From NCBI GenBank assembly GCA_021796275.1, contig JAJYOI010000001.1:6803-70802 (forward strand): a DNA stretch of 64,000 nt, given 5' to 3'. The position numbers and the translations under genes are program-made. The notes under the pieces are model-generated. The model made no database searches. It saw only the letters and a program-made list of their open reading frames with translations, and was not told where the DNA came from. This DNA is from Bacteroidota bacterium (GTDB taxonomy: Bacteria > Bacteroidota > Ignavibacteria > UBA10030 > UBA8401). Below, piece after piece: positions 3,631 through 29,771 of this stretch; position 1 is the first letter of the stretch, and every line of letters starts with the position of its first letter.

Positions 3631-3667
3631 GTCATACCGATGTGTTACCTACCTCTCTCGCCAGTCG

Positions 3668-6388: not shown

Positions 6389-6476
6389 AATATCTCTCCT
6401 TTTATTTATGGATGAGAATGAGTGTGGCATCTTCTCGCCGAAACACGGCTGGCGTGAACAGCCACGTTGCAATGGA

Positions 6477-6923
6477 TTAATTCTTCTTTATAGTTACAAT
6501 CACAATATCAGACGGTTTTCCTGTAAACTGAATTTTGTCGTGCGTGTAACCGGAAGGATACACTTTATACAAAACAACTACGCTATCGCGTGCACCTAGT
6601 TGAATCTCATTCGACGAATCACTGAACGTTGGGAAAAATGTTCTTCCGCGGGATTGAAAGAACGATGTATCATTAAAGCTGCGGAACACTTCCCAATCAC
6701 GAAGATTCGCTTGCTCACGGTCAGTACCGTATCGCACTGTGTCGTACGCCCACGTTAAAGTAATAAGCCTCTTATGCGATTGCGTACTGTCCAGTTGTGC
6801 CGAAAAATCAATCACATCTGGAACTCTGCCGTCGTGAGTATTCGGAATCAATCCGCGTTCCGGACCGCATCCCGCTGCAACCCACGAAAATGCTGCAAGA
6901 AAACACGTTTGCCAAAATTTCAT
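6477..6923 (-). CDS. Small lipoprotein, possibly with an FN3/Ig-like fold
   Basis: Signal peptide with lipobox MKFWQTCFLAAFSWVAAGC. The mature part is beta-rich (LITLTWAY...). Confidence 0.5.
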   Translation of the reverse strand: MKFWQTCFLAAFSWVAAGCGPERGLIPNTHDGRVPDVIDFSAQLDSTQSHKRLITLTWAYDTVRYGTDREQANLRDWEVFRSFNDTSFFQSRGRTFFPTFSDSSNEIQLGARDSVVVLYKVYPSGYTHDKIQFTGKPSDIVIVTIKKN

Positions 6924-6963
6924 ATGCAATTATATTCTATGATGATAGTTCAACAATTCTGAG

Positions 6964-9169: not shown

Positions 9170-9171
9170 TC

Positions 9172-12189: not shown

Positions 12190-12203
12190 TCTGCACTCCG
12201 AAA

Positions 12204-13184: not shown

Positions 13185-14919
13185 CTGTTTTCGTTACAAA
13201 TTCTCCCCCGTTATCAACATTTACGGCGAGCTGAATAATATACACGCCCGGCAAAACCAGCTTGCCATTATCATTCCTCCCATCCCATAAAAATCCTTTT
13301 CCTCCGCTTCGTGGATCGCCAAAATATGGATTTGCTGCCGACGGCATCGAAACAACCGTTCTGATTTTTTTGCCGGTTAAATCGTAAATGGAAATTGACA
13401 ACGTTTTAGGCGTTTCAACATTAGCCACAGAAAAATCAATAATCGTGGCATCATTTTTTCCATCACCATTAGGAGTGAACGGATTAGGATCTATTTGAAC
13501 ATCAACCAGAACATTTTCAGGCACTCCGTTTGTCGTTACCGACCAACCATCGCCGGTTGCGGTTCGATGAGGATCGACAAACTGAGGGTTCCATGAAGCA
13601 TTTTTGCTGACGATCTCAGCGGGAAAATCGGCGCCTTCAATTAGTTTTGTAGTGAATGTAATATCGATTGTCGAAGATGTAACTATTGTCTGCGGGAACC
13701 CAATTGTCATTTGGTCGGGAGCGGGGAGAAAAGTATAAGAGATTGGAACTCCATCAGAAGAAACGGAACGAACCACTGCCGGACCCGGACTTCTAATTTT
13801 TACTGTATCCAGTCCAAGTGAGCTATGCGAAAAGTACGCCGCAATAGAATATTTCAACGTCACTGGGCTTAGCACGGGAACATCGGACGGAGTAATAAAC
13901 GCAACAGTCGAATCCGCAATCAGATTTTTTTGATAGACAAACTTTACGCCTTTCACTTTCGGCGTACCTAAATCTGACGTGAAAAGATGAAGGCGGTATT
14001 GAAAATTTCTCCTCGGCTCTTTGACATCAAGGAGCGTTCCTTTTTCGGCTTCTTCAGCCGAAAAGAATTCGACCGGCGTTGACCAGGCAGACCAAGTTGT
14101 GTCAGCAGCCGGTGTGTTCCCGGTGCGCATCTCAATTGAAACCGATGTTGCATTATCAAAATCAGCGTCAACATAAACCTGCCCGAAATTCACTGCTGCA
14201 CCAAGCGAGGTATCAATCGCAGAAGTGTACGTTCCCTCCGAAACATATCCTTCCCCGAAAATCCTGATTTCGGAAATAACGGTATAATCCGTGAGAGTCT
14301 GTTTATCCAAGACAAAAACAAGGTAACGCGCAATGACGGGCTGTGAAAGATAGGCAGTATGAATAGAATCCTGGTTATCGAGTTCCTGATAAATTTTTGT
14401 AAGACTATTAGAATCCACCCCGGCATAATAAGAAAATGCGAGCGGGCGTTGTTTCTTTGACGAACCGAACCCGCCCAAATCTGCCACCTGAATTCGATTA
14501 ATACGGCGAATCGCCTGCAAGTCAATTGTAATGAAAGAACCAACATTGCCCGGCGGCAGCGATACGATGGAAAAAAGATTGTTGTCACGCAATTTGTTCG
14601 CATTCATTTTCGCTGTGTCGGGAACCGTCGTGTTGGGAATTGGACCATTAGTTTGCGGAATAGGGCCGATATAGGTTATCGAGAAGCGGGCATCGAGCGC
14701 CAGGTTTTTTGTGTCGCCGCTTGCGAGAACAATGGCATGCGGCACCGCACCCAAGTCAACATCCGCAGTTTGCTGTATATCCCGCTTGGTAGAGTCTGAA
14801 AAATCCGTTATCGAATAAACGAGAGAATCAGAGGAACTTGTAACTTCGGGTAACTGCGAGTATAAACTTAGAGGAAAAATAACCGAGGTGACAAAGAAGA
14901 GATAAAATATTTTTCTCAT
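13168..14919 (-). CDS. Secreted adhesin-like protein with a type-B T9SS C-terminal domain (gliding-motility-associated / SprB-type CTD)
   Basis: The C-terminus VQIDPNPFTPNGDGKNDATIIDF...YDLTGKKIRTV...FLWDGRNDNGKLVLPGVYIIQL carries the NPFTPNGDGKND signature. The signal peptide MRKIFYLFFVTSVIFPLSLYSQ starts at ATG 14919. The ORF-track start at 14994 is likely too long. Confidence 0.7.
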   Translation of the reverse strand: MRKIFYLFFVTSVIFPLSLYSQLPEVTSSSDSLVYSITDFSDSTKRDIQQTADVDLGAVPHAIVLASGDTKNLALDARFSITYIGPIPQTNGPIPNTTVPDTAKMNANKLRDNNLFSIVSLPPGNVGSFITIDLQAIRRINRIQVADLGGFGSSKKQRPLAFSYYAGVDSNSLTKIYQELDNQDSIHTAYLSQPVIARYLVFVLDKQTLTDYTVISEIRIFGEGYVSEGTYTSAIDTSLGAAVNFGQVYVDADFDNATSVSIEMRTGNTPAADTTWSAWSTPVEFFSAEEAEKGTLLDVKEPRRNFQYRLHLFTSDLGTPKVKGVKFVYQKNLIADSTVAFITPSDVPVLSPVTLKYSIAAYFSHSSLGLDTVKIRSPGPAVVRSVSSDGVPISYTFLPAPDQMTIGFPQTIVTSSTIDITFTTKLIEGADFPAEIVSKNASWNPQFVDPHRTATGDGWSVTTNGVPENVLVDVQIDPNPFTPNGDGKNDATIIDFSVANVETPKTLSISIYDLTGKKIRTVVSMPSAANPYFGDPRSGGKGFLWDGRNDNGKLVLPGVYIIQLAVNVDNGGEFVTKTVVVAY

Positions 14920-14972
14920 GAATACTGCATATTGTATCGAAGGTTTGTTAGAAGGGTAAACTAACCGCAGTG

Positions 14973-15001
14973 AATATACAAGATATTGCCCCAATTGTCA
15001 A
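14973..15001 (-). promoter_or_regulatory. Sigma-70-type promoter (TTGACA-N17-TATATT) driving the T9SS-cargo/OM operon
   Basis: On the minus strand, TTGACA is the reverse complement of 14996-15001 and TATATT is the reverse complement of 14973-14978, with a spacer of exactly 17 nt. It sits about 50 nt upstream of ATG 14919. Confidence 0.5.
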
Positions 15002-15012
15002 TATATTGCCAA

Positions 15013-15612
15013 CTAATTCCTATACAACCGATGTTCCATGATATACTCTTCCACAGAAGTAGGAACGAGATAACGAATTGATCGGTGCGCTTTCACTGAG
15101 GCGCGAATTTCCGATGACGATATTTCAATATCTGGAACATCAACAAAAATTGCAGACGAAGAAAATGGAAGCTGCTGCTGATTGTGTTGATATGAAGCGC
15201 GATTCATAACAATAAGCTTTGCCTGTTCTACAATTCGTTCTGGAAATTTCCATGTCCGAAATTCAATGAAGTTATCCATCCCGATCAAAAAAAATAATAA
15301 GTCGTTCGTGTGCTCGGCGCGAAGCGCTTCGACAGTTTCAAAAGTGTAAGATGTCCCTTTCCGCTTCAGTTCAATATCGGAAACTGTGAAATGGGAATTA
15401 TCCTTAATTGCAAGTCTAACCATTTCCAACCGCGCTCGTGCATCTTTTTCTTCCCCCGCTTGTTTATGTGGTGAAATGAAAGATGGAATAAAAATAATTT
15501 TGTCCAAGCCGGCCCTTTCGCGAACATGCTCAGCAACAATCAAATGGCCGTAATGCGGCGGATTGAATGTTCCGCCAAAAATTCCAATGTTCATTTTTTT
15601 CTTATCGTTCAT
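15013..15612 (-). CDS. nadD: Nicotinate-nucleotide adenylyltransferase
   Basis: IGIFGGTFNPPHYGHL (H/TxGH) motif, typical NadD length, SxxxxR-like C-terminal region. Confidence 0.9.
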   Translation of the reverse strand: MNDKKKMNIGIFGGTFNPPHYGHLIVAEHVRERAGLDKIIFIPSFISPHKQAGEEKDARARLEMVRLAIKDNSHFTVSDIELKRKGTSYTFETVEALRAEHTNDLLFFLIGMDNFIEFRTWKFPERIVEQAKLIVMNRASYQHNQQQLPFSSSAIFVDVPDIEISSSEIRASVKAHRSIRYLVPTSVEEYIMEHRLYRN

Positions 15613-16717
15613 TTTTTCCCATCACTTTTTCATAAATTTCCATTGTCTTTTGCGCAGTCGTTCGCCACGAAAAAAGCCGGGAACGCTCTCTCCCTTTCTC
15701 AATCATGTTTTTCCTTAAATCTGGTTCTCGCAATAAACAAACGATCGCATCTGCAAATTCATCAACATTCCCCGACTCGCAAATCATCGCCGCATTCCCT
15801 ACGACTTCCGGCAATGATGCAGCCTTCGAAATAACAACCGGAATTCCGCATGCCATCGCTTCCAACGCGGGCAAACCAAATCCTTCATATAGCGACGGAA
15901 GCACAAGCATCTCTGCCGCGTTGTATGCAAGCATAACGTCATCATCAGCAAGCCGGCCGAGAGTTTTTATTCTTCCCGAAATTTCAGAGACACCGGTGTT
16001 CAGCCAATCCACACCTTCATGATTCAATGTTCCACCTACAATTACAAGGTCAATATCGGGAAAAATGCGAAGGGCTTTTTTGAATGCATCAAGCAATACT
16101 TCCAGCCCTTTGTGAGGTTTGGTGTTGCCGACAAAAAGAACGTACGGCCGTTCAAGTTGAAACCTCGATCTAAAATCCTCAGCTTCAGAAGAAGTATGTT
16201 TTTGACGAAATCGCTCCGACACACCGAGATGAATTGGTACAATCTTTTCTTCCCGCACCCGGAATGAGCGGAGAATATCGTGCTTTGTAAACTCGGAATC
16301 TGTTATGATATATTGAGCATCACGGACTGCGTGAAGAATCATTCCGTAAGAATACGCCCGCTGAAAGGAAGAAAATAATTCCGGAAATCGTAAATGAATA
16401 AGATCGTGGATTGTTACCACCGCTCTCTCCTTCAATCCAAAGGGAAGCGTATAATGCGGCGCATGGAAAACCGAGACATCATTTACTGCAGCCCTTCTGC
16501 CGAATAGAAAAATCTCGCTCACTGAATACTTGCCATATCGTACAACAGATGTTGTCCATCCGTCAGGAATAGAAAGTTTTTCTTCATCCTCCGGCGAGAC
16601 AAAAAGAAGAAACTCGTGCCCGGATTGAATCAAAGGCAATTCTTCAACAAGATGTCTGATATACGTCCCAATCCCGAAGTCATAATATTTTCTTGCGTCA
16701 ATTGCGATACGGCTCAT
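15602..16717 (-). CDS. Glycosyltransferase family 4 (GT-B fold)
   Basis: EX7E-type motif region [18 protein letters not shown]. Start at Met [10 protein letters not shown] (ATG 16717). Overlaps nadD by 11 nt. Confidence 0.8.
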
Positions 16718-16721
16718 AGTA

Positions 16722-17546
16722 TTATCCGTGTGACTTGAACAACGAAGCAAGGATTACTGCCGACGTTTTTTTACCGCTTGCAGTTAGAAACCGAACGGCA
16801 AATTTCAAGAAAAGATAAATACGTAAAAAGATTCGCTGCGGTATTGATCGGAATTTATCGTAAAACCGAAGCTGGCTTTTCCGATATTCTGTCTGGATTT
16901 TCGCATTTGACACATCGTAGCTTTTTCCGCCCAAATGTATAAGGCTGAGTTCTTGAAAATACTTAATTGAAAAGCCATTGCGCAACACGCGAAAGCATAA
17001 ATCAATATCCTCAAAATACATGAAATACTTTTCATCGAACCCGCCGGCTTGCTCAAATACTGACCGGCGCACCATCATCGCGGCTCCAGTTACCCATTCA
17101 ATATTTCCGGATACTACCACTTCACGTTTTGTTTTCCACTCATTCAAAAGTGACGGGAATTTTCCGTACGAAATTTGGAACGAACCATCTTCATTGCTCA
17201 GCGAGGGTGCGGCAATGCCGTTCGTTTCATTTTGTTTCATGAATACAGCAAGCGGCGTAATAATGTCCGAAGTAAAAAGCGTGTCGTTATTAACAAAGAA
17301 AAGAAAATCACCGCACGCTTTCATCACACCAAAATTGTTCGCACTGCTGAAACCTTGATTTTGTTCCAGCAGAAATACTTGATGCTCGGGAAAATCCTTT
17401 TTAAGCCGATGCCCGCTTCCGTCTGCTGAGTTATTATCAACAATAATAACTTCATAATCCAAGGAAGGCGCAAACTGTTTCAGAGATAAAAGACACTGCT
17501 CAGTATAAATGCCGCCGTTATAATTTACAATGATAACGGAAACCAT
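16722..17546 (-). CDS. Glycosyltransferase family 2
   Basis: N-terminal VSVIIVNYNGG...DNNSADGS (DxD-type GT-A signature). Confidence 0.8.
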   Translation of the reverse strand: MVSVIIVNYNGGIYTEQCLLSLKQFAPSLDYEVIIVDNNSADGSGHRLKKDFPEHQVFLLEQNQGFSSANNFGVMKACGDFLFFVNNDTLFTSDIITPLAVFMKQNETNGIAAPSLSNEDGSFQISYGKFPSLLNEWKTKREVVVSGNIEWVTGAAMMVRRSVFEQAGGFDEKYFMYFEDIDLCFRVLRNGFSIKYFQELSLIHLGGKSYDVSNAKIQTEYRKSQLRFYDKFRSIPQRIFLRIYLFLKFAVRFLTASGKKTSAVILASLFKSHG

Positions 17547-17549
17547 GTT

Positions 17550-18581
17550 TTAATCGGTCATGAATTCTATTGTTCGAATATTCACGATTCTGAAATACCA
17601 AAGCGCAATTTTGTTGATGAGTGTTCCGAATATTGATTCGCCGTTCGTTATTTTGCTTGTCATTCGTCGGATGATTTCTTCTTCTGAAACTTTCTTCAAC
17701 ACTGCAAGTTCGCCTCGCTTTTTCCGAATCAATCCGATATGAGACAGGAGCCACCAATACGCCCGGACTATTCCGACGATGGAATATTTCGTCGGAAGCA
17801 AACCGGCGGCACTTTTAGCAAGCGCGTTTAACACGAATAAAGGCAAAAGCTTTACTAATGTTTTCGGAGAGAAAAAAAGAAAAGTATTCAACAAACGATT
17901 ACGCTCTTGATAGAACGTCTTCACAGAAGATTTTTGATTCCTTGCCGTACCGGAGCCGCGATGGTACACAACTGAATCGTTCACATGAATTACATGGTAA
18001 CCGGCAAATCGGGCTTTCAAACTTAAATACACATCTTCACCGTAGGTAAAATACTCAACGTCGAAAGGAATTCCAAAAATGTTCTTCTTGTAAATAAGCG
18101 ACGCTCCGCCTGCAAAAAAAATATCTTCCCGCTTTTTGAAGACACGCATAATGTTATGCCCGAGAAAATTAACCGAACCGTTCATCTCGTAGTATTTTTG
18201 CGGAATACCCTCAGTCAAAATGAGTGATGATGCTGCGGCAACATCAGCCGGAGAAACAGCGCTCACCAGATTAGAAAGCCAGTCTTTTTCTGCTCGTGTG
18301 TCGTTATTTAAAAGAACAATGAGAGTGCCATGCGAAGCTTGAACACCAAGGTTATTCCCTCCGGCAAAACCAGAATTGGTTTGAGAACGGACAATCTTTA
18401 CCTGCGGAAAGTGTTCCCGAACAAATTCCACGCTGTCATCTGATGAAGCATTGTCAACAAGAATAACTTCAAATTGAGTGTACGCTTGTCGAAACACCGA
18501 ACTCAAACACACATCCAAGAAGCGTTTGCCGTTAAAATTGACAATGATAATTGAAACAACCGGTTGTTGAGTCTCGCTCAT
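17550..18581 (-). CDS. Glycosyltransferase family 2
   Basis: VSIIIVNFNGKRFL...VDNASSDDS. Confidence 0.8.
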   Translation of the reverse strand: MSETQQPVVSIIIVNFNGKRFLDVCLSSVFRQAYTQFEVILVDNASSDDSVEFVREHFPQVKIVRSQTNSGFAGGNNLGVQASHGTLIVLLNNDTRAEKDWLSNLVSAVSPADVAAASSLILTEGIPQKYYEMNGSVNFLGHNIMRVFKKREDIFFAGGASLIYKKNIFGIPFDVEYFTYGEDVYLSLKARFAGYHVIHVNDSVVYHRGSGTARNQKSSVKTFYQERNRLLNTFLFFSPKTLVKLLPLFVLNALAKSAAGLLPTKYSIVGIVRAYWWLLSHIGLIRKKRGELAVLKKVSEEEIIRRMTSKITNGESIFGTLINKIALWYFRIVNIRTIEFMTD

Positions 18582-18584
18582 CAG

Positions 18585-19523
18585 TCAGAATTTGAAAAGT
18601 GAATTCACATACCGCAGAGAGACGTTCCGCCGCGATTGGATGTCTTTCCGCTTTGCCAAGAGAACCGGAAAAAATTTGATAACCTCGACAGCTGCCTGAA
18701 GCTGTTCCTTGATAAATCCTTGTTGAAGAATCTTCATCGCATTATAAATTCTGCTCAGAATAATTAACGCAGCACGCAATAAAAAAATCTGCCACGGAAC
18801 ATTTTTGAGCAGGTAAAAGAAAGGATTTCGCGCATGAAGTTTTGCCGCAAGGCTCGTAATCTGTAATTTTGTCCCACCGCGTTTGTGATAGCATACGGCA
18901 TGTGGAGTATAGAGACACTTATAGCCCAGAAGCTGGGAACGAAAATCATGATCAATATCTTCACCCCAGGCAAAAAAAGATTCATCGAATAAGCCGACTT
19001 CATCAAACATCTTTCTGCGATAAAGCGCAGCGCCTGCGCATGCACCGAAAACATAATGGAAAGAATCGAACGAACCGTTATCCAGTTGTTTTTCACCACG
19101 CGAACGACCGTTCCCGGCACAACTCAACTCATCACCGGCGGCATCAATAATATTGCGATGATAAAAGTTCATCATCTTACAAGCAACAGAGCCGATTTCA
19201 TCATGTTGGCGAATTGCTTCAATCATTTTTTCCAGCCAATCGCCCGTTAATTCAATATCGTTATTCAATAGCGCAATATAGTCATTGCGTGTCGCAGTGA
19301 TTCCCGCGTTCACCGCACACGCAAATCCTTTATTCTCACTGAACTGAATCCACCGTACTTGAGGAAAATTTTCCGCTACATACGAAACTGAACTGTCGCT
19401 CGATCCATTATCAACAACGATAACTTCGAAATCGGAATACGTCTGCTTGAAAATCGAATTCAAACAGAGCGGCAAATGCTCCATGCCGTTATAATTCGGA
19501 ATGACAATGCTAACGGCCGGCAT
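18585..19523 (-). CDS. Glycosyltransferase family 2
   Basis: VSIVIPNYNGMEHL...VDNGSSDSS. Confidence 0.8.
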   Translation of the reverse strand: MPAVSIVIPNYNGMEHLPLCLNSIFKQTYSDFEVIVVDNGSSDSSVSYVAENFPQVRWIQFSENKGFACAVNAGITATRNDYIALLNNDIELTGDWLEKMIEAIRQHDEIGSVACKMMNFYHRNIIDAAGDELSCAGNGRSRGEKQLDNGSFDSFHYVFGACAGAALYRRKMFDEVGLFDESFFAWGEDIDHDFRSQLLGYKCLYTPHAVCYHKRGGTKLQITSLAAKLHARNPFFYLLKNVPWQIFLLRAALIILSRIYNAMKILQQGFIKEQLQAAVEVIKFFPVLLAKRKDIQSRRNVSLRYVNSLFKF

Positions 19524-20493
19524 GGAGAGGAACTCCTCGGTGACGAACGAACATCGTGTAAAACGATTTCAAAAAAAGTTTATGCTTTCTTTTGCTATAC
19601 GCAGCCGATTCGAAGGCATTATTGCCAGCAACGGTAATGCTGCGGATGAGATAGATAATGCCGGAGTTACAAACAAGAACGAGTTCGACAAAAAATGCGG
19701 AAAGTTTCGATCTGTTTTTTTTGAAAAACAAAATCAAACTGAGGGTAAATCGTTCAAACACCCATTCATTGTTCTTTGATACAAAGCTCCTTCCGCCAAC
19801 GTGAGTGAGCGCTGCTTTCCGATACAGAACAAGCTTCCACCCTGCTCTTCTCATCCGTAAAGACCAATCCACGTCTTCAAAAAATAATTTGTATTCTTCA
19901 TCCATCAATCCAACAGCAACAATCACGCTGCGCCGAACGAGAATACATGCGCCGGGAATTTGCTCTACCTCAGAATATTCTTCATCCTGAAGCGGCGCTT
20001 CCAGGAATCGCTCAACAAGCCATTGTATTTTTCTGCTCCACGGCTCGAAAAAGGTATGGAAAAATATAACTTGAAAAAGAGTGGGGATTTTTCTCACATA
20101 ACCTTTTTGAAAAACACCGTCTGCATTCATCAACATCGGCATAAGAGCGCCGGCATCAGCGTGTGATTCAAAAAAAGAAATAAGCTTTTCAATCGCTTCC
20201 GGCTGAAGCACAATGTCTGGATTAAGAATCAAAATATATTTACCTTGCGACCTGCGTATTCCTTCATTGACACCCCATGCAAAACCGTTGTTGACAGTGC
20301 TCGCCACTAACGAAACTTCTGCGTAATTAGTTTTCACTGTATCGCAACTCCCATCGCTTGATGCGTTGTCAACGACGATCACTTCTTTTGAAAACGCGGA
20401 AAGGCACCGGACGATAGAATCCAAACACGAAAGGAGATATTCCTTTGTATTCCAATTCACAATGATAATAGAAAGATCGGGTAGCATGTTCAT
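19510..20493 (-). CDS. Glycosyltransferase family 2
   Basis: LSIIIVNWNTKEYL...VDNASSDGS. Start taken at Met MNMLPDL (ATG 20493), downstream of the flippase gene's stop. Confidence 0.75.
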   Translation of the reverse strand: MNMLPDLSIIIVNWNTKEYLLSCLDSIVRCLSAFSKEVIVVDNASSDGSCDTVKTNYAEVSLVASTVNNGFAWGVNEGIRRSQGKYILILNPDIVLQPEAIEKLISFFESHADAGALMPMLMNADGVFQKGYVRKIPTLFQVIFFHTFFEPWSRKIQWLVERFLEAPLQDEEYSEVEQIPGACILVRRSVIVAVGLMDEEYKLFFEDVDWSLRMRRAGWKLVLYRKAALTHVGGRSFVSKNNEWVFERFTLSLILFFKKNRSKLSAFFVELVLVCNSGIIYLIRSITVAGNNAFESAAYSKRKHKLFLKSFYTMFVRHRGVPLHAGR

Positions 20494-20503
20494 AATGTGC
20501 CAT

Positions 20504-22048
20504 TCAGCGTTCGAAAGATGCTGCAACCTTACGAACGATACGACGGACAATACCAATGTCGTATTCATCGAAAACTTTGAACAGCAACAGTGTTGCAACA
20601 ACAATTCCAAGATACAGCATTACGGCTAATAATAAACTGACAATTGTTCCTTCCCGAGAAAATGACATCGGATATATTGCATGAATGACAACTTGAGCGA
20701 TCAACGCAGCCCCAATACAAATTGACATTGGCTTGATGAAGATGCGGGCAATCAGCAGTGAAGAAATGCCCATGGTTCGGTGAAACGCGACAATGAAATA
20801 AAAAGCCCCAATAATAAGTGAAAGCGATGTCCCTAATGCGATGCCAACGGGACCAAATAGAAATGCACCGAGCAACGTAATGCAAATATTTATGACTGCT
20901 ACCAAAAGCCCGTAATTTCTGTCCAATTCTGTTTTACCTAACCCTGCAGTCATCGAACTAGCAACACCTGTGACAATATTAAAGAAATAGCCAATCGCAA
21001 GAAGCCGTACAAAAGCGACTGATGTTTCAAACCCCGCGCCGACCCAGGCATAAATAATATCGGAAACAAAAACAGTAACAAAGCAGAAAAAAAAGCTTGC
21101 GACTATTACAATATATTTCGTTCCGCGTTTATACAATGCCGTTAATTGTTCGCGATCATCTTTTGCATTGATTTCAGCAATCGCCGGAATGAGCGCCGTG
21201 AGGATCATAAATGAAAATGAACGCGCAGCACTTGTCAACCGCACGCTTAAATCATAATACGTTGAAACGAACGCGCCAAAAAAACGAAGGCTGAAAATCC
21301 GATCCGTCTGGAAAAGAATAATTTGCCCCATTCGACTTACCTGCAGATTGAACCCGTAATGCAAGAACTGTTTTACTTTTGTGAAAGCAAAATAGCGCGG
21401 GCGAAGCTTTAATGACGGAACAAGTCGGAATGCAATGACACTTAGACACATGGCATTGACTGCCGCAACAATCAGATTGTTCACAACCAAACCGCGCACG
21501 CCATAACCGGAACGAAGAACAAAAATTGTTCCGGCGATAGTAAGTGTTTGTGTAACAAAAGAAACATATAAATTGACTTCCATTCTTTGAATGCCGTTGA
21601 TGATTGACGTTACCGGAGACGCAATTCCCGACAGAACAAAAATACACACTGCAACTTTTAACACAAACTCTGCATCGCCAAGAATTGCCTGAGGCACTCC
21701 GGCAAGAGAGAGCAGAACGCCGCCAAGAGAAAGTGCTAAACCAATAATTACGATCCCGATGGCTGCATAGACGATCACTCCCGTGTTGACAACTTCGAGA
21801 AGGTCATCCATCATGCCTTTTGTGTAATATTCACTGATATATTTTACGAAGGCAGTGCCTGTTCCCATGTCCAATAAGCCGATGTAGGCAGTCAATGCGC
21901 CGATAATTGCCCACACCCCGCCATACATTTGTTCGCCGAGTGAATGGACAATAAACGGGACAAGAAAAAAGTTGGAGACAAAAATGAAAAAAAAATTGAT
22001 CGAATTGGTGATGGTGTTGCGGATTATTTTACGCGGCGTTTCATTCAT
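20504..22048 (-). CDS. Wzx-like polysaccharide flippase (MOP/MATE superfamily polysaccharide biosynthesis protein)
   Basis: About 12-14 predicted TM helices across 514 aa. It sits inside the GT cluster. N-terminus IRNTITNSINFFFIFVSNFFLVPFIV. Confidence 0.7.
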   Translation of the reverse strand: MNETPRKIIRNTITNSINFFFIFVSNFFLVPFIVHSLGEQMYGGVWAIIGALTAYIGLLDMGTGTAFVKYISEYYTKGMMDDLLEVVNTGVIVYAAIGIVIIGLALSLGGVLLSLAGVPQAILGDAEFVLKVAVCIFVLSGIASPVTSIINGIQRMEVNLYVSFVTQTLTIAGTIFVLRSGYGVRGLVVNNLIVAAVNAMCLSVIAFRLVPSLKLRPRYFAFTKVKQFLHYGFNLQVSRMGQIILFQTDRIFSLRFFGAFVSTYYDLSVRLTSAARSFSFMILTALIPAIAEINAKDDREQLTALYKRGTKYIVIVASFFFCFVTVFVSDIIYAWVGAGFETSVAFVRLLAIGYFFNIVTGVASSMTAGLGKTELDRNYGLLVAVINICITLLGAFLFGPVGIALGTSLSLIIGAFYFIVAFHRTMGISSLLIARIFIKPMSICIGAALIAQVVIHAIYPMSFSREGTIVSLLLAVMLYLGIVVATLLLFKVFDEYDIGIVRRIVRKVAASFER

Positions 22049-22057
22049 GTAAACAGT

Positions 22058-22945
22058 TCACCTTAGCTGAGAATGAAGCAACGACAATTCGGCTTTTGTG
22101 TCATGATGAAAAGAAAAAAGCTTCAGTGCAATAGGGCTTTTGGTCACTGCCATTAAACGGAACAAAAGAATCGGCAAAAGAAAATATTCTGCTTTTCTGC
22201 CAAAATGCATGCGGTAGTATAATAATATATTGCAGTACATTTCCAACCGTAGCTTCGGATTCGCCTGCTTCGTGCTGCGGCTGCCATGATGCATAACAAC
22301 CGCCAGCGGCGTAAAATATATTTCCCATCCACTGTGTTTTATCCGCCGACATAATTCCACATCGTTATAGAGAATTGTTAATCGTTCATCGAAGAGTCCG
22401 AAAGAATCCACGATCGCTTTGCGAACAATTAAGCACGTTGCATCAGGCTGATCTACAGAGCGCACGACGTCATGTTTGAACTTTTTCATCAGATAACCGG
22501 AGTTCAACCAATTGAGCGAACAATATAAAGCCGCTGCGTTCAGCGGAGTCGGAAAGCGTTTGCACGAAGGTTGAAGCTTCCCGTCCGGTGTAACAAGCTT
22601 GCAGCCTACGGCACCGGCATTGTGGTATTCATTCATAAATTGTATCATCTTTTCCAACGCGTTTCCACGAACTTCGGTATCGCTGCCTAAAAGTAAAATA
22701 TATTTCCCTTTTGCAATTTCCGCTCCCTGATTATTTGCCCGCGCATAACCAAAATTTTTTGCATTACAAATCAGGACCACATCAGGAAATTCACTTTCGA
22801 TCATATTTGCTGAGCCATCAACCGATGCGTTATCAACAACTATGATTTCATACGTTCCCTTTGGAGGTTGCACATAAATTGAACGCACACATTCCCTCAA
22901 CAAATCTCGGGTATTCCACGATGCGATGATGATCGATAATTCCAC
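22058..22945 (-). CDS. Glycosyltransferase family 2
   Basis: LSIIIASWNTRDLL...VDNASVDGS. The GTG start lies immediately after the trpB TAG stop. Confidence 0.75.
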   Translation of the reverse strand: MELSIIIASWNTRDLLRECVRSIYVQPPKGTYEIIVVDNASVDGSANMIESEFPDVVLICNAKNFGYARANNQGAEIAKGKYILLLGSDTEVRGNALEKMIQFMNEYHNAGAVGCKLVTPDGKLQPSCKRFPTPLNAAALYCSLNWLNSGYLMKKFKHDVVRSVDQPDATCLIVRKAIVDSFGLFDERLTILYNDVELCRRIKHSGWEIYFTPLAVVMHHGSRSTKQANPKLRLEMYCNILLYYRMHFGRKAEYFLLPILLFRLMAVTKSPIALKLFSFHHDTKAELSLLHSQLR

Positions 22946-24142
22946 CTAAATAATACCTTCCTTCATCACTGTGCCCAAATCTTTATCTCCTCTGCCGGAA
23001 AGATTTACAACAATAATCTCGTCCTTTTCCATTGTTGCCGCCAATGTTACTGCATACGCCACGGCATGGGCAGATTCAAGAGCAGGAATAATTCCTTCTG
23101 TCCGGGAAAGCAACAGCAGCGCATTCAGTGCTTCTTTATCAGTTGCTGAAACATATTCGACAAGCTTCTGATCTTTCAGGTAACAATGTTCAGGACCGAC
23201 ACCCGGATAATCAAGTCCGGCAGAGATCGAATGTGCAAGCTGAACTTGTCCGTTTTCATCCTGTAATAAATATTGCATCGCACCGTGAAGAACGCCGCGC
23301 TGTCCCAACGCAAGCGCCGCCGCATGCTTTCCGGTTTCAAGTCCGTAACCCGCAGCTTCAACTCCGATAAGCCTCACAGCGGGAACATCCTCGAGAAACG
23401 GATAGAAAATTCCCATTGAATTGCTTCCGCCGCCGACACAGGCAACAATCACATTCGGCAGTTTTTTTTCTGATTCAAGAATTTGCACGCGCGTTTCTTT
23501 GCCAATGACTGATTGAAAATCTCGCACCATCATCGGAAAGGGATGCATGCCGACAACCGAGCCGATGACGTAAAATGTATCGCGGACATTTGTTACCCAA
23601 TCGCGGATCGCTTCGCTTGTCGCGTCTTTCAATGTTTTACTTCCGCTCGAAACAGGACGAACTTCAGCGCCAAGCAATTTCATTCGATACACATTCGGCG
23701 CCTGGCGTTCCATATCTTCTTCACCCATGTACACAACGCATTGAAGTCCGAACAACGCGCAGACTGTCGCCGTTGCGACTCCGTGCTGCCCTGCGCCGGT
23801 TTCTGCAATAATGCGCTTCTTCCCCATCTTACGCGCAATAAGAATTTGTCCAATTGTGTTGTTGATTTTATGAGCGCCGGTGTGACATAAATCTTCGCGC
23901 TTCAAATAAATTTTTGCACCGCCAGTTTGAGCAGACAATCTCTGTGCAAAATAGAGCGGCGTCGGCCGTCCGACAAAATTCTTGAGATAATAATTGACCT
24001 CATTCTGAAACGTGAAATCGTTCTTCAGCTTGTCATACCACGCCGTCAGTTCTTCAACTACGGGAAGCAATGTTTCAGGAATATAGCGGCCGCCGTAAAC
24101 GCCAAAATGGCCGGTGGCATTGGGAAGATTTTTGTATTTCAT
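22946..24142 (-). CDS. trpB: Tryptophan synthase beta chain
   Basis: [14 protein letters not shown]-lysine motif and GGGSNSMG. 398 aa, which is the TrpB1 size. Confidence 0.95.
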
Positions 24143-24819
24143 GATTGCAAAGGAATTGATGTACGATGATTTTTCATAGCTTCAAAACCGCGCTGAGCAT
24201 TTCTAACGAAGTCTCTTATTTTTCCGTGATCTTTAATGCCGGGTGAAAATTCAACACCGCTGCTTACATCAACTCCAAACGGCTGAACAAAAGCGATTGC
24301 TTCTTCAACATTGCCCGGTGTCAATCCTCCTGAAAGAATAATCTTGCCGAAATTTTTCGCCTCACGCGCGATAGCCCAATCGAATGTTTTTCCTGTCCCG
24401 CCGAACTCATTCGGTGAAAAGGAATCTAACAAAAAAGCATCAACCGAATAGCGCGAAAGCAAAAGAAGCTGCTCCGCGGTTGCGATGTGTACTGCCTTCA
24501 CAACAGGAATATCGTAACCGGTTGGAAATCCCTTTGGGAAAATCTCCTCCGGCGCTTCATCGCCATGAAACTGAAGTACGTCTAATTTCATCTCACTGCG
24601 CACTGCGTCAATTTCATCTCTCGCTGCATTCACAAAAACACCGGCACGTGCAATAGAGCGGGAAAGTTTAGCAGAAATTTCTGCGGCACGGCGCGGAGTA
24701 ATATATCGTTTGCTGCCGCTGTAAAAATTAAATCCAACTGCCGAAGCTCCGCTTTTAAAAGCACAGAGCGCGTCTTCAAGATTTGTGATACCGCAAATTT
24801 TGATGAACGGCGCTTCCAT
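24139..24819 (-). CDS. trpF: Phosphoribosylanthranilate isomerase
   Basis: [13 protein letters not shown]-terminus. About 225 aa with a TIM-barrel pattern. Confidence 0.85.
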
Positions 24820-24838
24820 TGTCAAAATCTCATTGGGA

Positions 24839-25636
24839 TTATGCAGAAACATGGGAGCGCATTAATTGGCGGAGAGCCTGTGCGCGATCCTTCTGCACCA
24901 TCAGTTGTTCGCCCACAAGAACACAGTCAAAGCCGGCTTGGCGAAGAAGATACACGTGGTGCTCATTCCGTATGCCGCTCTCGCTCACCGTAAGAACGGT
25001 GTTCGGAATCATTCGCTTGAGGTTAAGCGACGTTTCAAGATTCACTTCAAATGTTTTCAAATCGCGGTTGTTGATGCCGATGATTGTCGCCCCGCAGTCA
25101 ACGGCACGGTCAATTTCTTTTTTCGAATGACATTCAACAAGGCACGCAAGTCCGAACTGCTGCGCCAAGCCGAGAAAATGGACGATTTGATCATCACTGA
25201 GCGAAGCAACAATCAGCAGAATTGCATCGGCACCGATTGCCCGCGATTCATAAATTTGATACTCGTCAATGATAAAATCCTTGCGCAGAACCGGCACGTG
25301 AACGTTTCTTTTCACCAATGCAATGTATTCCGGGCTACCTTGAAAAAATTTCCGGTCGGTCAAAACTGAAATCGCATTTGCGCCTCCTTGCGCATACTCG
25401 CGGGCAATTTTCTCCGGTGAAAACGACTCGGCAATCACGCCGCGCGAAGGCGACGCTTTTTTGATTTCTGCAATGCATGCTATTCCATCAAAATCATGAC
25501 TGGCAATTGCTCCGGCAAAATCCCTCGCCGACGACATCGTGCCGATCAACCGCGACAATTTTTCCACGGGCACAGATTGCCTGAGCGATTCGACCTCGCT
25601 TCGTTTATGTTCTACTATTTCATTTAACTTGTTCAT
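24839..25636 (-). CDS. trpC: Indole-3-glycerol phosphate synthase
   Basis: IAEIKKASPSRGVI motif. 265 aa. Confidence 0.9.
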   Translation of the reverse strand: MNKLNEIVEHKRSEVESLRQSVPVEKLSRLIGTMSSARDFAGAIASHDFDGIACIAEIKKASPSRGVIAESFSPEKIAREYAQGGANAISVLTDRKFFQGSPEYIALVKRNVHVPVLRKDFIIDEYQIYESRAIGADAILLIVASLSDDQIVHFLGLAQQFGLACLVECHSKKEIDRAVDCGATIIGINNRDLKTFEVNLETSLNLKRMIPNTVLTVSESGIRNEHHVYLLRQAGFDCVLVGEQLMVQKDRAQALRQLMRSHVSA

Positions 25637-25654
25637 GTTCCGCGTTGTCTTCTT

Positions 25655-26572
25655 TCACAGGCGCTGTTTTTTCACTTTCACCAAGCGAATGCGGCGCTCG
25701 TTTTTCTTGCTCACTAAAAACGCTAAATCGCCATAACGGATTTCTTCGTGCAATTCCGGAATGCGTCCGGTAAACTTGTGAAGAAAACCGCTGATCGTTT
25801 CATAGTCAACATCTTCGGGTACGGCGGCATGGAACTGCGCGTTAAAATCATGAATGCTCATTCCAGCATTCACGACAACCGAACCGTCGCTCGACGGCTC
25901 AATGTCGCGAAGGTCTTCATCATATTCATCCCGAATTTCTCCGACGATTTCCTCAAGAATATCTTCCATCGTAATAATGCCCTCCGTTCCTCCAAACTCA
26001 TCAACAACAATTGCCATGTGCTGTTTTTTTGTTTGAAGCTCACGAAGAAGTGCGCTGATTTTTTTTGATTCAGGAATAAAATAGGGCGGACGAAGAATAT
26101 CCTGAAGAATAATTACATCGCGGTGCTCAAGCATGCTGAGCAGATCTTTCGTGTAAATGATGCCGATAATGTTATCAATGCGGCCGTGATACACCGGCAT
26201 CCGGGAATACCCCTCGTCAATAACCACCTTCACCAATCGTTCGCGGCTGATAGAAATGTCAACGGCAACAACGTCAGTGCGCGGAACCATAATTTCTTTG
26301 ACGGTGGTATCGGTGAACTCGAGAATGCTTTTAAGCAGTTCATGTTCCGTCGAATCAATTGCACCGCTTTGCTGTCCGTCTTCCAGCATCTGCTTGATGT
26401 CGGCTTCGGAAACGTGCTGGCGCCTGACTTTGTTGAAAATCCCTTTGGGAAAGATTCCTGTAATTGCTGCCACAACATCCTTCCAATTAAAAATCCGCCG
26501 TGCTTCATCTTTGGGCGGAAACTCCTTTTGTTTGCTATCGTCATGTAGCCGCACGTCGCTCATGGACGCCAT
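25655..26572 (-). CDS. corC: CorC/YbeX-family soluble protein with a CBS pair plus a CorC_HlyC domain and no DUF21 TM domain
   Basis: Two CBS motifs (IMVPRTDVVAV..., AIVVDEFGGTEGIITMEDILEEIVGEI) followed by a transporter-associated C-terminal domain. Confidence 0.7.
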   Translation of the reverse strand: MASMSDVRLHDDSKQKEFPPKDEARRIFNWKDVVAAITGIFPKGIFNKVRRQHVSEADIKQMLEDGQQSGAIDSTEHELLKSILEFTDTTVKEIMVPRTDVVAVDISISRERLVKVVIDEGYSRMPVYHGRIDNIIGIIYTKDLLSMLEHRDVIILQDILRPPYFIPESKKISALLRELQTKKQHMAIVVDEFGGTEGIITMEDILEEIVGEIRDEYDEDLRDIEPSSDGSVVVNAGMSIHDFNAQFHAAVPEDVDYETISGFLHKFTGRIPELHEEIRYGDLAFLVSKKNERRIRLVKVKKQRL

Positions 26573-26642
26573 GCCATCATGAATACCAGTTCTTCATAGA
26601 CAACGCACAGCGATATCCTTAACTCAAAAAATATCTGCGGCT

Positions 26643-27650
26643 TCATTTCGTCGCCTCGATCAGTGCGTTGAGTTTCTGCTTTGCTTTTCCCGAATCAATG
26701 GAATCTGCCGCGCGTGCAACGCCTTCGTTCATGCCGGACGCAAGTCCTGCAACGCACAGCGCCGCCGCTGCATTCAACACAGTAATATCGCGTTGACCGC
26801 TTTTCTTACCGTCGAAAATATTTTTGAGAATCGCCGCGTTCGTCTCGGCATCGCCGCCTTTGAGTGCGCTCAAATCTCCTTCTGAAATTCCAACTGACGC
26901 GGAACGGAATTCGTACGTTGTCACTGAACCATTCTTCAATTCACTGATGCGCGTTATTCCGAATGTGGAAATCTCATCTAAACCGCCGGCACCGTGAACA
27001 ACCATGGCGTGCTTCGAACCAAGTTCTTTCAGCACATTGGCAAGCGGCTCGGTCAATTGTGAATTGAACACGCCGATCACCTGTCGTTTCGCACCTGCCG
27101 GATTTGTCAATGGACCGAGAATATTGAACACAGTCCGCACTCCTAATTCTCTTCGCACGGGACCCGCGTATTTCATTGCACCGTGGAGCGCTGTCGCAAA
27201 AAGAAACGCAATGCCGACATCGTTCAAACACTGCTCCACTCTTTCTTTCGGAATCTCGATGTTCACCCCTAACGCCACCAGCACATCGGCACTGCCGCTG
27301 CGACTCGAAATTGCTCGATTGCCATGTTTTGCCACAACCGCACCGGCGCCGGCGGCAACAAATGCTGCTGCTGTAGAAATATTGAATGTCCCGGCTCCGT
27401 CGCCGCCCGTTCCGCATGTATCAATCACATCGGAACTTTTCGATTCAATGCGCGTTGCTTTTTCACGCATTGCCTGAGCGCAGCCCGCAATTTCAGCGAC
27501 AGTTTCACCTTTCATGCGGAGCGACACCAAAAACGATGCGATCAGCGGTTCTGAAACATTGCCGGACATAATTTCCGACATCGCCTCGTACGCTTCCTGT
27601 TTTTCTAAGTCTTTGTGCTCTAAGATTTTGCGGAGCGCTTCTTTAATCAT
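26643..27650 (-). CDS. trpD: Anthranilate phosphoribosyltransferase
   Basis: DTCGTGGDGAGTFNISTAAAFVAAGAG signature. Confidence 0.9.
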   Translation of the reverse strand: MIKEALRKILEHKDLEKQEAYEAMSEIMSGNVSEPLIASFLVSLRMKGETVAEIAGCAQAMREKATRIESKSSDVIDTCGTGGDGAGTFNISTAAAFVAAGAGAVVAKHGNRAISSRSGSADVLVALGVNIEIPKERVEQCLNDVGIAFLFATALHGAMKYAGPVRRELGVRTVFNILGPLTNPAGAKRQVIGVFNSQLTEPLANVLKELGSKHAMVVHGAGGLDEISTFGITRISELKNGSVTTYEFRSASVGISEGDLSALKGGDAETNAAILKNIFDGKKSGQRDITVLNAAAALCVAGLASGMNEGVARAADSIDSGKAKQKLNALIEATK

Positions 27651-27702
27651 AAAATTAATTTAATGGAAAAGGCACTGATAATCAATTTACAGGAGTTGCC
27701 AT

Positions 27703-28488
27703 TCAATACACCACTTTTTCCAGCACTAAACCCTTCGCCGGCGCCGCCATCGAGGCACGCCGCCGGTCTTTTGCCTGAATGATGCCGGCAAATTCTTCAA
27801 CACTAATTTTTCCTCTTCCTACATCTATCAGCGTTCCGACAATAGCACGCACCATTCCGTGGAGAAAGCGGTTCGCACGAATAACAAAAACTGCTTTGCC
27901 ATTTTCGGGTTGTGTCGCCTTCGGCGCCATTTTCAACTTCCATTCTGCTTCGAACACCGTGCAGAGAAAGTGCCGCTTTACGGCATCCCGTACAGCGGGA
28001 TTCTTCTGTTCAAAACTCGATGTGCAGAACGATTGGAAATCGTGCGTGCCGAGCAGCAACCGTGCGGCTTCATTCATAACAGTGAAATCCAATTCATAGA
28101 AAATCTGCCAGCACATTTTTCGGTCAAGCGCAGTCCGCTGCTGCGATATGTAATAATGATAGATGCGTTCTTTAGCACTGTACCGCGCAGAAAATTTTTC
28201 AGGAACTTCTTCAAGATGACGGACGACGATGTCTTCGGGAAGGACACCGTTCAACGCACGCAATAAATCTTTCTCGGCGACAGCGGAATTCAATAAAAAA
28301 TTTGCCGCCTGTCCCCGCGCATGAACTCCGGCATCGGTTCTTCCGGCACCGACAACGGAAATTGATTCTTGCGTTACCTGCGCAACGGCTTCTTCTATCA
28401 AAGCCTGAACAGACCTGCCCTTCGCTTGGCGCTGCCAACCGATGAAATCCGTGCCGTCGTATTCAATAATGATCTTGATATTCCGCAT
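27703..28488 (-). CDS. truA: tRNA pseudouridine(38-40) synthase
   Basis: IIIEYDGTDFIGWQRQ and GAGRTDAGVHARGQ catalytic-Asp motif. Start taken at MRNIKIII (ATG 28488). Confidence 0.9.
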   Translation of the reverse strand: MRNIKIIIEYDGTDFIGWQRQAKGRSVQALIEEAVAQVTQESISVVGAGRTDAGVHARGQAANFLLNSAVAEKDLLRALNGVLPEDIVVRHLEEVPEKFSARYSAKERIYHYYISQQRTALDRKMCWQIFYELDFTVMNEAARLLLGTHDFQSFCTSSFEQKNPAVRDAVKRHFLCTVFEAEWKLKMAPKATQPENGKAVFVIRANRFLHGMVRAIVGTLIDVGRGKISVEEFAGIIQAKDRRRASMAAPAKGLVLEKVVY

Positions 28489-28596
28489 AGTGGAAAACAA
28501 TTGCCACAACACCACAGAGTTCACAGAGAATTATTTTAACGGCTTGATTGATAGTCTCTGTGCTCTCAGTGGCTACACTTTTATGTAACCCGTGTA

Positions 28597-28628
28597 CACG
28601 AAAAATCCCGTCACATGCAGCTTGCGTG
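28597..28628 (-). terminator. Rho-independent terminator on the minus strand (8-bp GC stem cccgtcac/gtgacggg, 11-nt loop, then AUUUUUCG)
   Basis: Stem, loop and U-run are all visible in the sequence. It lies in the 420-bp non-coding gap upstream of truA. Confidence 0.5.
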
Positions 28629-28676
28629 ACGGGACAATTTTATAATTGAGACATCTTAAAAACTCAAATGTTTGGT

Positions 28677-28705
28677 GGGACAGACATTCCTGTCTGTCGT
28701 TTTCG
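28677..28705 (+). terminator. Plus-strand hairpin (gacagac/gtctgtc, 7 bp) followed by GTTTTCG. It is a possible terminator for an unannotated plus-strand transcript.
   Basis: Inverted repeat and T4 run read from the sequence. There is no plus-strand CDS upstream. Confidence 0.25.
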
Positions 28706-28804
28706 ATCTAAATTTAATGTTCTTGACAGGCAACAATGACTGTCCTACCAATTTTTCAGATGTCTCTAATTCATAATTTATGTTACGCATGGGAAAAACC
28801 CGCC

Positions 28805-28881
28805 TAAAAAAATAAATTCGTCATGCCCGAACGCTTTAGTCGGGCATCCATACTTGAATTCCCGCCTTCGCGGGAATGACG
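28805..28881 (-). terminator. Compound two-hairpin structure with a closing stem, followed on the minus strand by a U-rich run. It is the putative terminator of gene 28945-29691 and may be a REP-like palindromic element.
   Basis: Hairpin A is gcccga-N9-tcgggc (28825-28845). Hairpin B is attcccgc-cttc-gcgggaat (28858-28877). The closing stem is cgtcat/atgacg. On the minus strand AATTTATTTTTTT follows. Confidence 0.45.
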
Positions 28882-28944
28882 TTACTCTGGTTTTGATTTT
28901 CAAAACAATCTTTTTTGCGTAACATGACTTCATAATTTATTTTT

Positions 28945-29691
28945 TCAAAACACCCCGCGCACAGTAAGAAGAAGTCCGTCAGGCACGCCGCTGTCGCTAA
29001 GCAAGGAAGATTCAATTCGGAGATTGATTCCACTTTCTGCCACATTATTATTGTAGCGGCGCACAAGTCGTGCAGCATTCAATGCGCTCACAACATGATT
29101 CACAATGATTGCTCCGATCACAAACCGTGAATTGTTGAACACGCGATCGCTCGAAACCCGTGCCGTGCGAAATTGCTGGCGGTTGGCATCGGAATCCCAT
29201 TGCCAGGCATATCCCTGATTTGGATCGTACACTTTGTCCGGCTGACGATCACGCAGCTTCTTATCGTTGTATTCGTACACATTCATAAAATTGCTGACAT
29301 CAACGTAGAACTGATCACTCTTCCCGCTTGCAGGCACGCCTGAATGTGAGGCGGCAAATGCGCGCCCGTCGTTCTGAAGCCACGTGCCGTATGTTTCAAA
29401 TGAAGCGTACGTCAGCCACAAACCCGCTTCTGCGCCGAGAAAATATCGCCCGGATTCGAAACCGCCGGCGTACCATTCGCCTAACCCGGGAACTAAGAGC
29501 GAGTAGACAACAGCCGCCGCTACAGATTTTTTTGTCGAAGAGCTTTGTGTATTTTCGAAGATGCCGGACGGCGGCGTTGCCGCATTCATTTCTTTCACTA
29601 ATTGTTGACGGAGCGGAATTGTTTCAGTCTGTGCAACAGCATTTCCTGTCACACAAAGAATATAAAAAACAATCAATAATTTCAGTTTCAC
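28945..29691 (-). CDS. Hypothetical secreted protein of 248 aa
   Basis: Signal peptide MKLKLLIVFYILCVTGNAVAQ. It is Gly/Tyr/Trp-rich and possibly beta-rich periplasmic or OM-associated. Confidence 0.5.
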   Translation of the reverse strand: MKLKLLIVFYILCVTGNAVAQTETIPLRQQLVKEMNAATPPSGIFENTQSSSTKKSVAAAVVYSLLVPGLGEWYAGGFESGRYFLGAEAGLWLTYASFETYGTWLQNDGRAFAASHSGVPASGKSDQFYVDVSNFMNVYEYNDKKLRDRQPDKVYDPNQGYAWQWDSDANRQQFRTARVSSDRVFNNSRFVIGAIIVNHVVSALNAARLVRRYNNNVAESGINLRIESSLLSDSGVPDGLLLTVRGVF

Positions 29692-29771
29692 CGTTATGCC
29701 TCAAATACTAATTTGTACTGTGAAAAATACAAAATCGAATTATGAAATGAAAATTTTGCCGCCGAAAAAAT

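Follow-up and report, generated by a model that had tools for sequence, protein, structure and literature searches.

A fixed position in the genome, between the tryptophan synthase gene trpB and the nicotinate-nucleotide adenylyltransferase gene nadD, holds a changing set of glycan-assembly genes in a lineage of uncultured Bacteroidota. We analyzed a stretch of 64,000 nucleotides (nt) of contig JAJYOI010000001.1 (assembly GCA_021796275.1), referred to here as the window, in which seven such genes (15602-22945, minus strand) fill this interval, which we call the slot: a family 2 glycosyltransferase (GT2_a), a Wzx-type flippase, four further GT2 enzymes (GT2_b to GT2_e) and a terminal family 4 glycosyltransferase (GT4). 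From synteny with related genomes we infer that the slot is ancestral and that its contents have been reshuffled among related uncultured Bacteroidota. What the genes make is a more tentative matter. The reading we prefer, to which we give slightly less than an even chance, is that the slot is a lineage-wide, position-fixed and content-variable locus for a Wzx-dependent, unpolymerized oligosaccharide, co-expressed with the housekeeping genes around it and similar to the LFG locus of Bacteroides, with protein as the favored acceptor.

The trpB-nadD interval in related genomes

Relatives were collected by a scan with TrpB, one genome per species, which gave 80 loci with TrpB 61-92% identical. 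The in-group (L001-L020) consists of uncultured Bacteroidota metagenome-assembled genomes (MAGs) with TrpB 74-92% identical; three further genomes (L082, L083 and L084) were added by tracing GT2_e homologs to their contigs, and the inspected sequence amounted to 64 kb for this genome and 21 kb for each relative. The backbone (cmk-ispH-rpsA-miaB-hypothetical-)truA-trpD-corC-trpC-trpF-trpB-slot-nadD recurs in L001-L019, L083 and L084, the last two (TrpB 83% and 67%, respectively) with a slot of Wzx, four GT2 and GT4. A glycan module stands between trpB and nadD in all 21 trp-bearing relatives with sequence there (TrpB 67-92% identical), and this shared site is what argues for an ancestral slot. 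In L082 the trp genes are gone, while truA-corC-slot-GT2_e-GT4-nadD is retained; within this locus (L082 1-12600; ENA ERZ25039512 contig_14908, 3.64 Mb), the slot contains two transposase genes of the insertion sequence (IS) family IS1595, a hint that the trp genes were lost through IS activity. The invariant feature is nadD: in 16 of 16 cases its start and the last slot gene are -17 to +7 nt apart. Its downstream neighbors vary among relatives (CHU_C/PorP, LexA, a response regulator or glgB), indicating that the syntenic block ends at nadD. At the other end, L001, the closest relative (TrpB 92%), has lost upstream synteny that more distant relatives keep: its positions 1-6540, the 6.5 kb before trpD, resemble nothing in the window and contain no truA, miaB or rpsA.

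The age of the arrangement is best seen in L012 and L083, which carry the window order GT2_a/Wzx/GT2_b-e/GT4 at 38-57% identity, next to 48-64% for the flanking trpD, trpC, trpF and nadD. Slot genes and flanks thus diverge at the same level, which suggests an old architecture passed on vertically, parts of which were replaced in other branches. The earlier note on this DNA, made from the sequence alone, had proposed that a cassette was inserted into a housekeeping operon, and had suggested asking whether trpA follows trpB elsewhere. It does so in 49 outgroup loci, as an open reading frame (ORF) of about 265 amino acids (two verified by PF00290, all 49 mutually similar), and never in the 21 trp-bearing relatives. 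Queries with the 49 outgroup TrpA sequences did not detect TrpA in either the window or L001-L020; the sole matches, weak ones in four loci, fall on the TIM-barrel region of trpC. As trpA is missing after trpB in the whole lineage, the module did not displace it recently in this genome. The same note had expected an ancestral cluster to show the shared arrangement together with trpA and with universally conserved glycosyltransferase genes; the arrangement is indeed common to the relatives, but trpA is absent from it and the glycosyltransferase genes are not universally conserved.

Could the seven genes still be a recent, horizontally acquired cassette that entered the trp-nadD operon of this genome and displaced trpA? 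Their composition is modestly shifted: GC content is about 4 points lower in the cluster genes (41-44%, with third-position GC, GC3, of 0.40-0.44), and the GC3 of the seven genes is 0.423 versus a window-wide mean of 0.465 (Mann-Whitney p = 0.003). Their content is unlike that of the closest relatives, and the IS1595 copies in the L082 slot would also fit an import. However, nadD, trpF and several unrelated genes are equally low in GC3 and GC, and in codon usage the cluster genes stay within the spread shown by other genes of comparable length. In a set of 13 genomes, the GC of the slot follows that of the genome from 34 to 53% and is 2-7 points below that of the flanks in 12 of them. The comparison of GC and codon usage proposed in the earlier note therefore gives no sign of recent import; the composition shows the mild AT bias that glycan loci usually have, after amelioration to the respective host. 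No integrase or transposase domains, tRNA, Rfam families or flanking att-like repeats were found at the window cluster. Families of direct repeats (D1-D3, 17414-22849, spaced by about 1 kb) were considered as mobile DNA and rejected, as they stem from motifs conserved at the N-termini of the five GT2 paralogs. The features of a recent genomic island, namely mobility genes, att sites, deviant composition and relatives that lack the module at the same site, are thus all missing, and the occupied site in every trp-bearing relative, the absence of trpA throughout and the orthologs of all seven genes in L012 and L083 that diverge in step with the flanks speak against this explanation as well. We give it very little credence, and a recent accessory insertion appears essentially excluded. 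The word accessory retains a part of its meaning, in that content differs even among the closest relatives, L001 and L002; the site itself is always occupied. Nor is a glycan module next to amino-acid and NAD genes as unusual as had been supposed, given that the LFG locus of Bacteroides is likewise linked to a housekeeping gene, metG (PMC8698959, PMC12871550).

Contents and turnover of the slot

To describe the contents, the ORFs between trpB and nadD were clustered and representatives scanned by domain search. The 92 slot proteins of 18 genomes fall into 48 families at a threshold of at least 40% identity, 29 of which are singletons. They include GT2 and GT4 enzymes, methyltransferases dependent on S-adenosylmethionine or of the FkbM type, a C-methyltransferase and, in L082, an epimerase; in L010 and L017 a GT9 enzyme adjoins the terminal GT4. 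Of the 16 complete slots, 15 encode one polytopic membrane protein, a MOP flippase that is Wzx-like or MurJ-like, and none of the 16 encodes a second one. The slot representatives scanned comprised no Wzy_C, Wzz, export or priming (PF02397, PF00953) protein and no TrpA domain. For the window, Pfam and NCBIfam scans of ORFs of at least 150 amino acids likewise returned no Bac_transf (PF02397), Glycos_transf_4 (PF00953), Wzy_C or Wzz domain, in agreement with the earlier note, which had described the cluster as free of a priming transferase, Wzy and Wzz. Measured as a Wzx/Wzy cluster, the locus has the Wzx and, in the window and the slot proteins scanned, neither Wzy and Wzz nor a nearby priming transferase. 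As the cluster combines a flippase and six transferases with none of the three other components (polymerase, regulator of chain length, priming enzyme), it is most sensibly read as making an oligosaccharide and not a classical, polymerized O-antigen, the view that the note had also taken. The same applies to the slot in each of the relatives examined.

The seven genes might instead supply the transferases and the flippase for a classical Wzx/Wzy polymer, such as an O-antigen, capsule or exopolysaccharide, with the polymerase, regulator, export and priming genes at another locus. Split polysaccharide loci exist, a GT2_e homolog of an Eisenbacteria MAG (L085) is clustered with a Wzy_C protein, and the sequence inspected is confined to the lengths given above. 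On the other hand, a polymerase normally travels with the unit-specific transferases and the flippase in Wzy-dependent loci, and not one of the 16 complete slots, despite the 48 families they draw on, has a second polytopic protein, Wzy_C, Wzz or export genes. We consider this less likely alternative improbable.

Turnover within the slot is pronounced. The terminal GT4, always adjacent to nadD, is the most widespread family; of the 13 in-group slots in which nadD is visible, 10 have it, as do L082-L084 (13 of 16). GT2_e precedes it in the window, L012, L082, L083 and L084, and is found in L013 and L015 as well, whose slots are truncated. GT2_a has orthologs in six genomes and GT2_d in five, the window counted in both cases. 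L001 shares GT2_a, Wzx and GT2_d at 72-80% identity; its slot contains no GT2_b, GT2_c, GT2_e or GT4 and ends in two unrelated GT2 genes. The L002 slot has no GT2_a, such that the three closest genomes (window, L001 and L002) all differ in content. A short GT2 family of about 250 amino acids in L007, L009, L010 and L013 does not occur in the window. The five GT2 paralogs of the window are distinct types of ancient divergence, only 27-33% identical to each other. Specific transferase functions were sought and set aside: all NCBIfam matches are far below their cut-offs, and among solved structures the closest are GT2 and GT4 enzymes of a generic kind, allowing no claim on sugar specificity. A link between GT2_e and the fucosyltransferase of the LFG locus was also considered and gained no support; its 1719 homologs, mainly from uncultured Bacteroidota, are mostly WbbL-like proteins of about 289 amino acids, and no named LFG protein is among them.

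Two further observations concern individual slots. In three relatives the slot flippase strongly matches the model of MurJ, the lipid II flippase (E 6e-50), rather than Polysacc_synt (L011, 11314-12891; L014, 4263-5837; L017, 12030-13580), and could be either a housekeeping murJ or a glycan flippase. In L014, the terminal GT4 is split into two overlapping ORFs of 242 and 158 amino acids (7491-8599), representing a frameshift pseudogene or an assembly error.

The array from truA to nadD and its surroundings

In the window, all genes from truA (28488) down to nadD (15013) lie on the minus strand in the order truA-trpD-corC-like-trpC-trpF-trpB-GT2-Wzx-4xGT2-GT4-nadD, as assigned by Pfam and NCBIfam from the ORF list. 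The first is truA (27703-28488), a tRNA pseudouridine synthase (PF01416, E 5e-39) whose start is likely the ATG at 28488, as the alignment of homologs begins at residue 9-13 of its longest ORF. It is followed by trpD (26643-27650, anthranilate phosphoribosyltransferase; PF00591, E 8e-96, and PF02885), a gene for a soluble CorC-like protein with a CBS pair and a CorC_HlyC domain (25655-26572; PF00571, PF03471), which the earlier note had omitted, trpC (24839-25636, indole-3-glycerol-phosphate synthase; PF00218, E 4e-89), trpF (24139-24852, phosphoribosylanthranilate isomerase; PF00697, E 1e-43) and trpB (22946-24142, tryptophan synthase beta; PF00291). The glycan genes begin with GT2_a (22058-22945; PF00535, E 2e-26) and the Wzx-type flippase (20504-22048), a MOP-superfamily protein with matches to PF01943 (E 8e-13) and MatE and about 11 transmembrane or hydrophobic segments. 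GT2_b (19510-20493; PF00535, PF13641), GT2_c (18585-19523; PF00535, E 1e-31), GT2_d (17550-18581; PF00535, E 2e-25) and the WbbL/rhamnosyltransferase-like GT2_e (16722-17546, 274 amino acids; PF00535, weak PF02709) lead to the terminal GT4 of GT-B fold (15602-16717; PF00534, E 3e-37, and PF13439), after which nadD (15013-15612) is identified by the NCBIfam equivalog NF000840 (202 bits against a cut-off of 150).

Start codons were checked by where homologs begin to align and against genes called independently on a Logan contig from the same organism, which have identical starts for GT2_b (327 amino acids) and GT4 (371 amino acids), whose longest ORFs extend to 20610 and 16750, respectively; both lines of evidence place the GT2_b start at M40 of its longest ORF. 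From truA downwards, the intergenic gaps are 52, 70, 18, -14, -4, 0, 9, 10, -14, 3, 3, 4 and -11 nt, those within the glycan cluster ranging from -14 to +10 nt. The earlier note was accurate on this layout: the array is co-directional with exactly the gap range it gave, from -14 to +70 nt; the trpB/GT2_a junction (22945/22946) reads ...ATT TAG|GTG GAA..., with the GTG start abutting the TAG stop; and GT4 overlaps nadD by 11 nt, as it also does in the Logan gene call. Two starts have alternatives: trpF begins at 24852 or at the ATG at 24819 (a gap to trpC of -14 or +19), and an ATG at 15594 for nadD would give +7 in place of -11. Co-directionality is not special to the array, as all real genes between 418 and 34826 share the minus strand, and with the longest ORFs tight spacing continues beyond nadD (18, -17 and 14 nt), whereas in the Logan gene call the next gene after nadD starts 93 nt away.

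The spacing makes it plausible that truA to nadD form a single transcription unit of 13.5 kb. A terminator scan found none between array genes, the count of 21 comparing with 23.1 +/- 5.6 in shuffled sequence; the internal gaps of 52 and 70 nt contain no significant RNA structure, and the Bacteroidetes-type -7 motif TAnnTTTG has no intergenic occurrence inside the array, its only intergenic match being upstream of rpsA. The internal terminators or promoters that, according to the earlier note, would separate the blocks are therefore not convincingly seen in these scans. Upstream of truA lies a non-coding gap of 456 nt (28489-28944), which is only 37-180 nt in relatives. About 110 nt before truA, it contains a terminator-like hairpin with a U-run (28601-28635, minus strand; -19.2 kcal/mol, z = -4.3, with 0 of 200 shuffles folding as well), likely the end of the upstream transcription unit, with a new unit beginning at truA. 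Two further hairpins are found in the same gap (28856-28877 and 28822-28846). Just past the nadD stop, a sigma-70-like match, TTGACA-17-TATATT (14973-15001, minus strand), is the best in 12000-30000 at 11 of 12 positions; it is a consensus match only and may be a promoter of its own for the gene that follows.

The trp block itself is partial, as the earlier note had it: trpD, trpC, trpF and trpB are in the array, and Pfam and NCBIfam scans found no TrpA, TrpE or TrpG domain in window ORFs of at least 150 amino acids. The CorC-like gene keeps its position in all relatives, including the trp-less L082. It contains no DUF21 membrane domain and resembles the C-terminal portion of GldE/CorC models, with scores under the cut-off; we know of no link to tryptophan synthesis. 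Additional genes occur in the block of some relatives, with an aldo/keto reductase between trpD and corC in L012 (6790-7692) and an M48 peptidase between truA and trpD in L019 (5790-6605), showing that the block tolerates them; similar gaps of 900 bp are present also in L003, L009, L010 and L016.

The rest of the window is typical of Bacteroidota, with type IX secretion system (T9SS) cargo carrying CHU_C and Por_Secre_tail domains, PorP/SprF, rpoN and hslVU. Directly downstream of nadD, a series of large genes for secreted or T9SS-related proteins (418-14994, minus strand), in common with L001 only, encodes a CHU_C-domain protein of 608 amino acids, PorP/SprF, proteins of 1005 and 505 amino acids, a DUF5683 protein, a Por_Secre_tail cargo protein of 934 amino acids and a TPR protein of 1047 amino acids. 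A second, divergent glycan or lipid cluster (34908-38151, plus strand) adjoins cmk and resembles glycolipid-synthesis modules, consisting of two GT2 genes (GT21-like) on either side of a gene for an LPG_synthase_TM-family membrane protein.

The proposed product and comparison with known loci

How would these genes work together? In our proposal, a priming transferase encoded elsewhere would load the first sugar phosphate onto undecaprenyl phosphate as the lipid carrier, and the six cytoplasmic transferases, five distant GT2 enzymes and one GT4, would extend it by up to about six sugars. The single MOP flippase would turn the lipid-linked oligosaccharide to the periplasmic face, where a ligase or oligosaccharyltransferase, also encoded elsewhere, could transfer it en bloc to a protein or to lipid A-core. 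Without a polymerase the product would have no repeats. Protein is the acceptor that we consider most likely, in which case the locus would be the counterpart of LFG, making the species-specific outer part of a general O-glycan. Over time, genes in the slot would have been gained, lost and replaced between species while trpB and especially nadD stayed fixed. As nadD starts a few nt from whichever transferase is last, it is probably co-transcribed, and partly translationally coupled, with the glycan genes.

The closest described system appears to be the LFG locus of Bacteroides, Parabacteroides and Tannerella. This locus is polycistronic and linked to metG, consists of metG, wzx, species-variable glycosyltransferases and two conserved terminal ones, with methyltransferases included in Tannerella, and encodes the species-specific outer part of a general protein O-glycan (PMC12871550, PMC8698959, PMC6120980). 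Methylation is a common feature of Bacteroidota O-glycans. The last LFG gene encodes a GT2 L-fucosyltransferase of about 255 amino acids (BF4306/Tanf_01305/Phep_4048), and a mark of the system is a truncated O-glycan on the D-(S/T)-(A/I/L/V/M/T) sites of many exported proteins upon LFG deletion. The trpB-nadD slot resembles this system in several respects: both are co-directional, tightly packed clusters of one wzx and several glycosyltransferases, joined by methyltransferases in the slots of relatives; neither has a polymerase or chain-length regulator; both are attached directly to a housekeeping gene, within the same phylum; and both combine a fixed position across species with a variable, species-specific middle and one or more conserved terminal transferases. 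Unlike LFG, the slot is flanked by trpB and nadD instead of metG, and a GT2 often precedes wzx.

Several points weigh against our proposal. Neither the priming enzyme nor the ligase is in the 64-kb window. The window has no metG and no methionyl-tRNA synthetase domain, the upstream neighbor of the cluster being trpB at 0 nt. The conserved terminal gene of the slot is a GT4 and not the GT2 fucosyltransferase of LFG, with GT2_e being WbbL-like, and no slot gene is known to be an ortholog of an LFG gene; the likeness is one of organization. The first three slot genes face trpB in L004, L005 and L018, meaning that read-through from trpB is not universal, and co-transcription is itself deduced from spacing. 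General O-glycosylation is not known from this uncultured lineage. Finally, the GT9 in the slots of two relatives favors a product linked to lipopolysaccharide (LPS), as this heptosyltransferase family is best known from LPS core synthesis.

An LPS-linked product is indeed the main rival, which we regard as possible, if rather doubtful. The same machinery and history would then yield a single O-unit or an outer-core extension of the lipooligosaccharide type, attached by a WaaL-type ligase encoded elsewhere and possibly serving as the anchor glycan of T9SS cargo. A Wzx and transferases without Wzy and Wzz are what a one-unit O-antigen requires, and in L010 and L017 the GT9 stands right beside the terminal GT4. 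T9SS-related genes (the CHU_C-domain protein and PorP/SprF) follow nadD immediately in the window and in L001, and anchoring of T9SS cargo that depends on LPS is documented in the phylum (PMC11611037). However, these neighbors are not kept elsewhere, LexA, a response regulator or glgB following nadD instead, and the adjacency therefore seems to be incidental. Neither the window nor the 10-kb flanks contain a gene for lipid A, Kdo or WaaL, and the abundance of methyltransferases and the conserved terminal transferase behind a variable middle match LFG equally well or better.

Returning to the LFG-like reading with a protein acceptor, an evolutionary extension is conceivable, although we think it rather doubtful: the slot may be the LFG equivalent of a deep, uncultured lineage, and tying a glycosylation locus to an indispensable gene may have arisen twice independently, with metG in Bacteroidales and with nadD (and trpB) here. 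The tie would then be a selected design, providing constitutive expression, protection from deletion and conserved flanks for the exchange of cassettes by homologous recombination. Should the locus direct O-glycosylation or synthesis of a lipooligosaccharide outer glycan, the trpB-nadD interval would be a simple genomic marker, with which surface-glycan diversity could be catalogued in a group known only from metagenomes. A glycan locus of variable content firmly tied to an essential gene would then be known from two independent cases, with a bearing on the tie between LFG and metG in Bacteroides.

By itself the finding changes no concept, as variable glycan cassettes between housekeeping flanks are a familiar theme. 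The enterobacterial O-antigen locus lies between galF and gnd/his, and the pneumococcal cps locus between dexB and aliA. Those loci vary within one species, whereas the variation described here was assessed at the species level only, and they carry wzy, often wzz or export genes, genes for nucleotide-sugar synthesis and frequently a priming transferase. What the trpB-nadD slot has in common with them are the conserved flanks, the cassette-like variable interior, the slightly lower GC and wzx. The flank on the trp side, in turn, follows the canonical trpEGDCFBA operon in having trpD, trpC, trpF and trpB in their usual relative order, overlapping or abutting. It departs from that operon in the absence of trpE, trpG and trpA from this locus in the whole lineage, in truA preceding trpD and the corC-like gene separating trpD from trpC, and in a trpB that runs straight into a glycosyltransferase.

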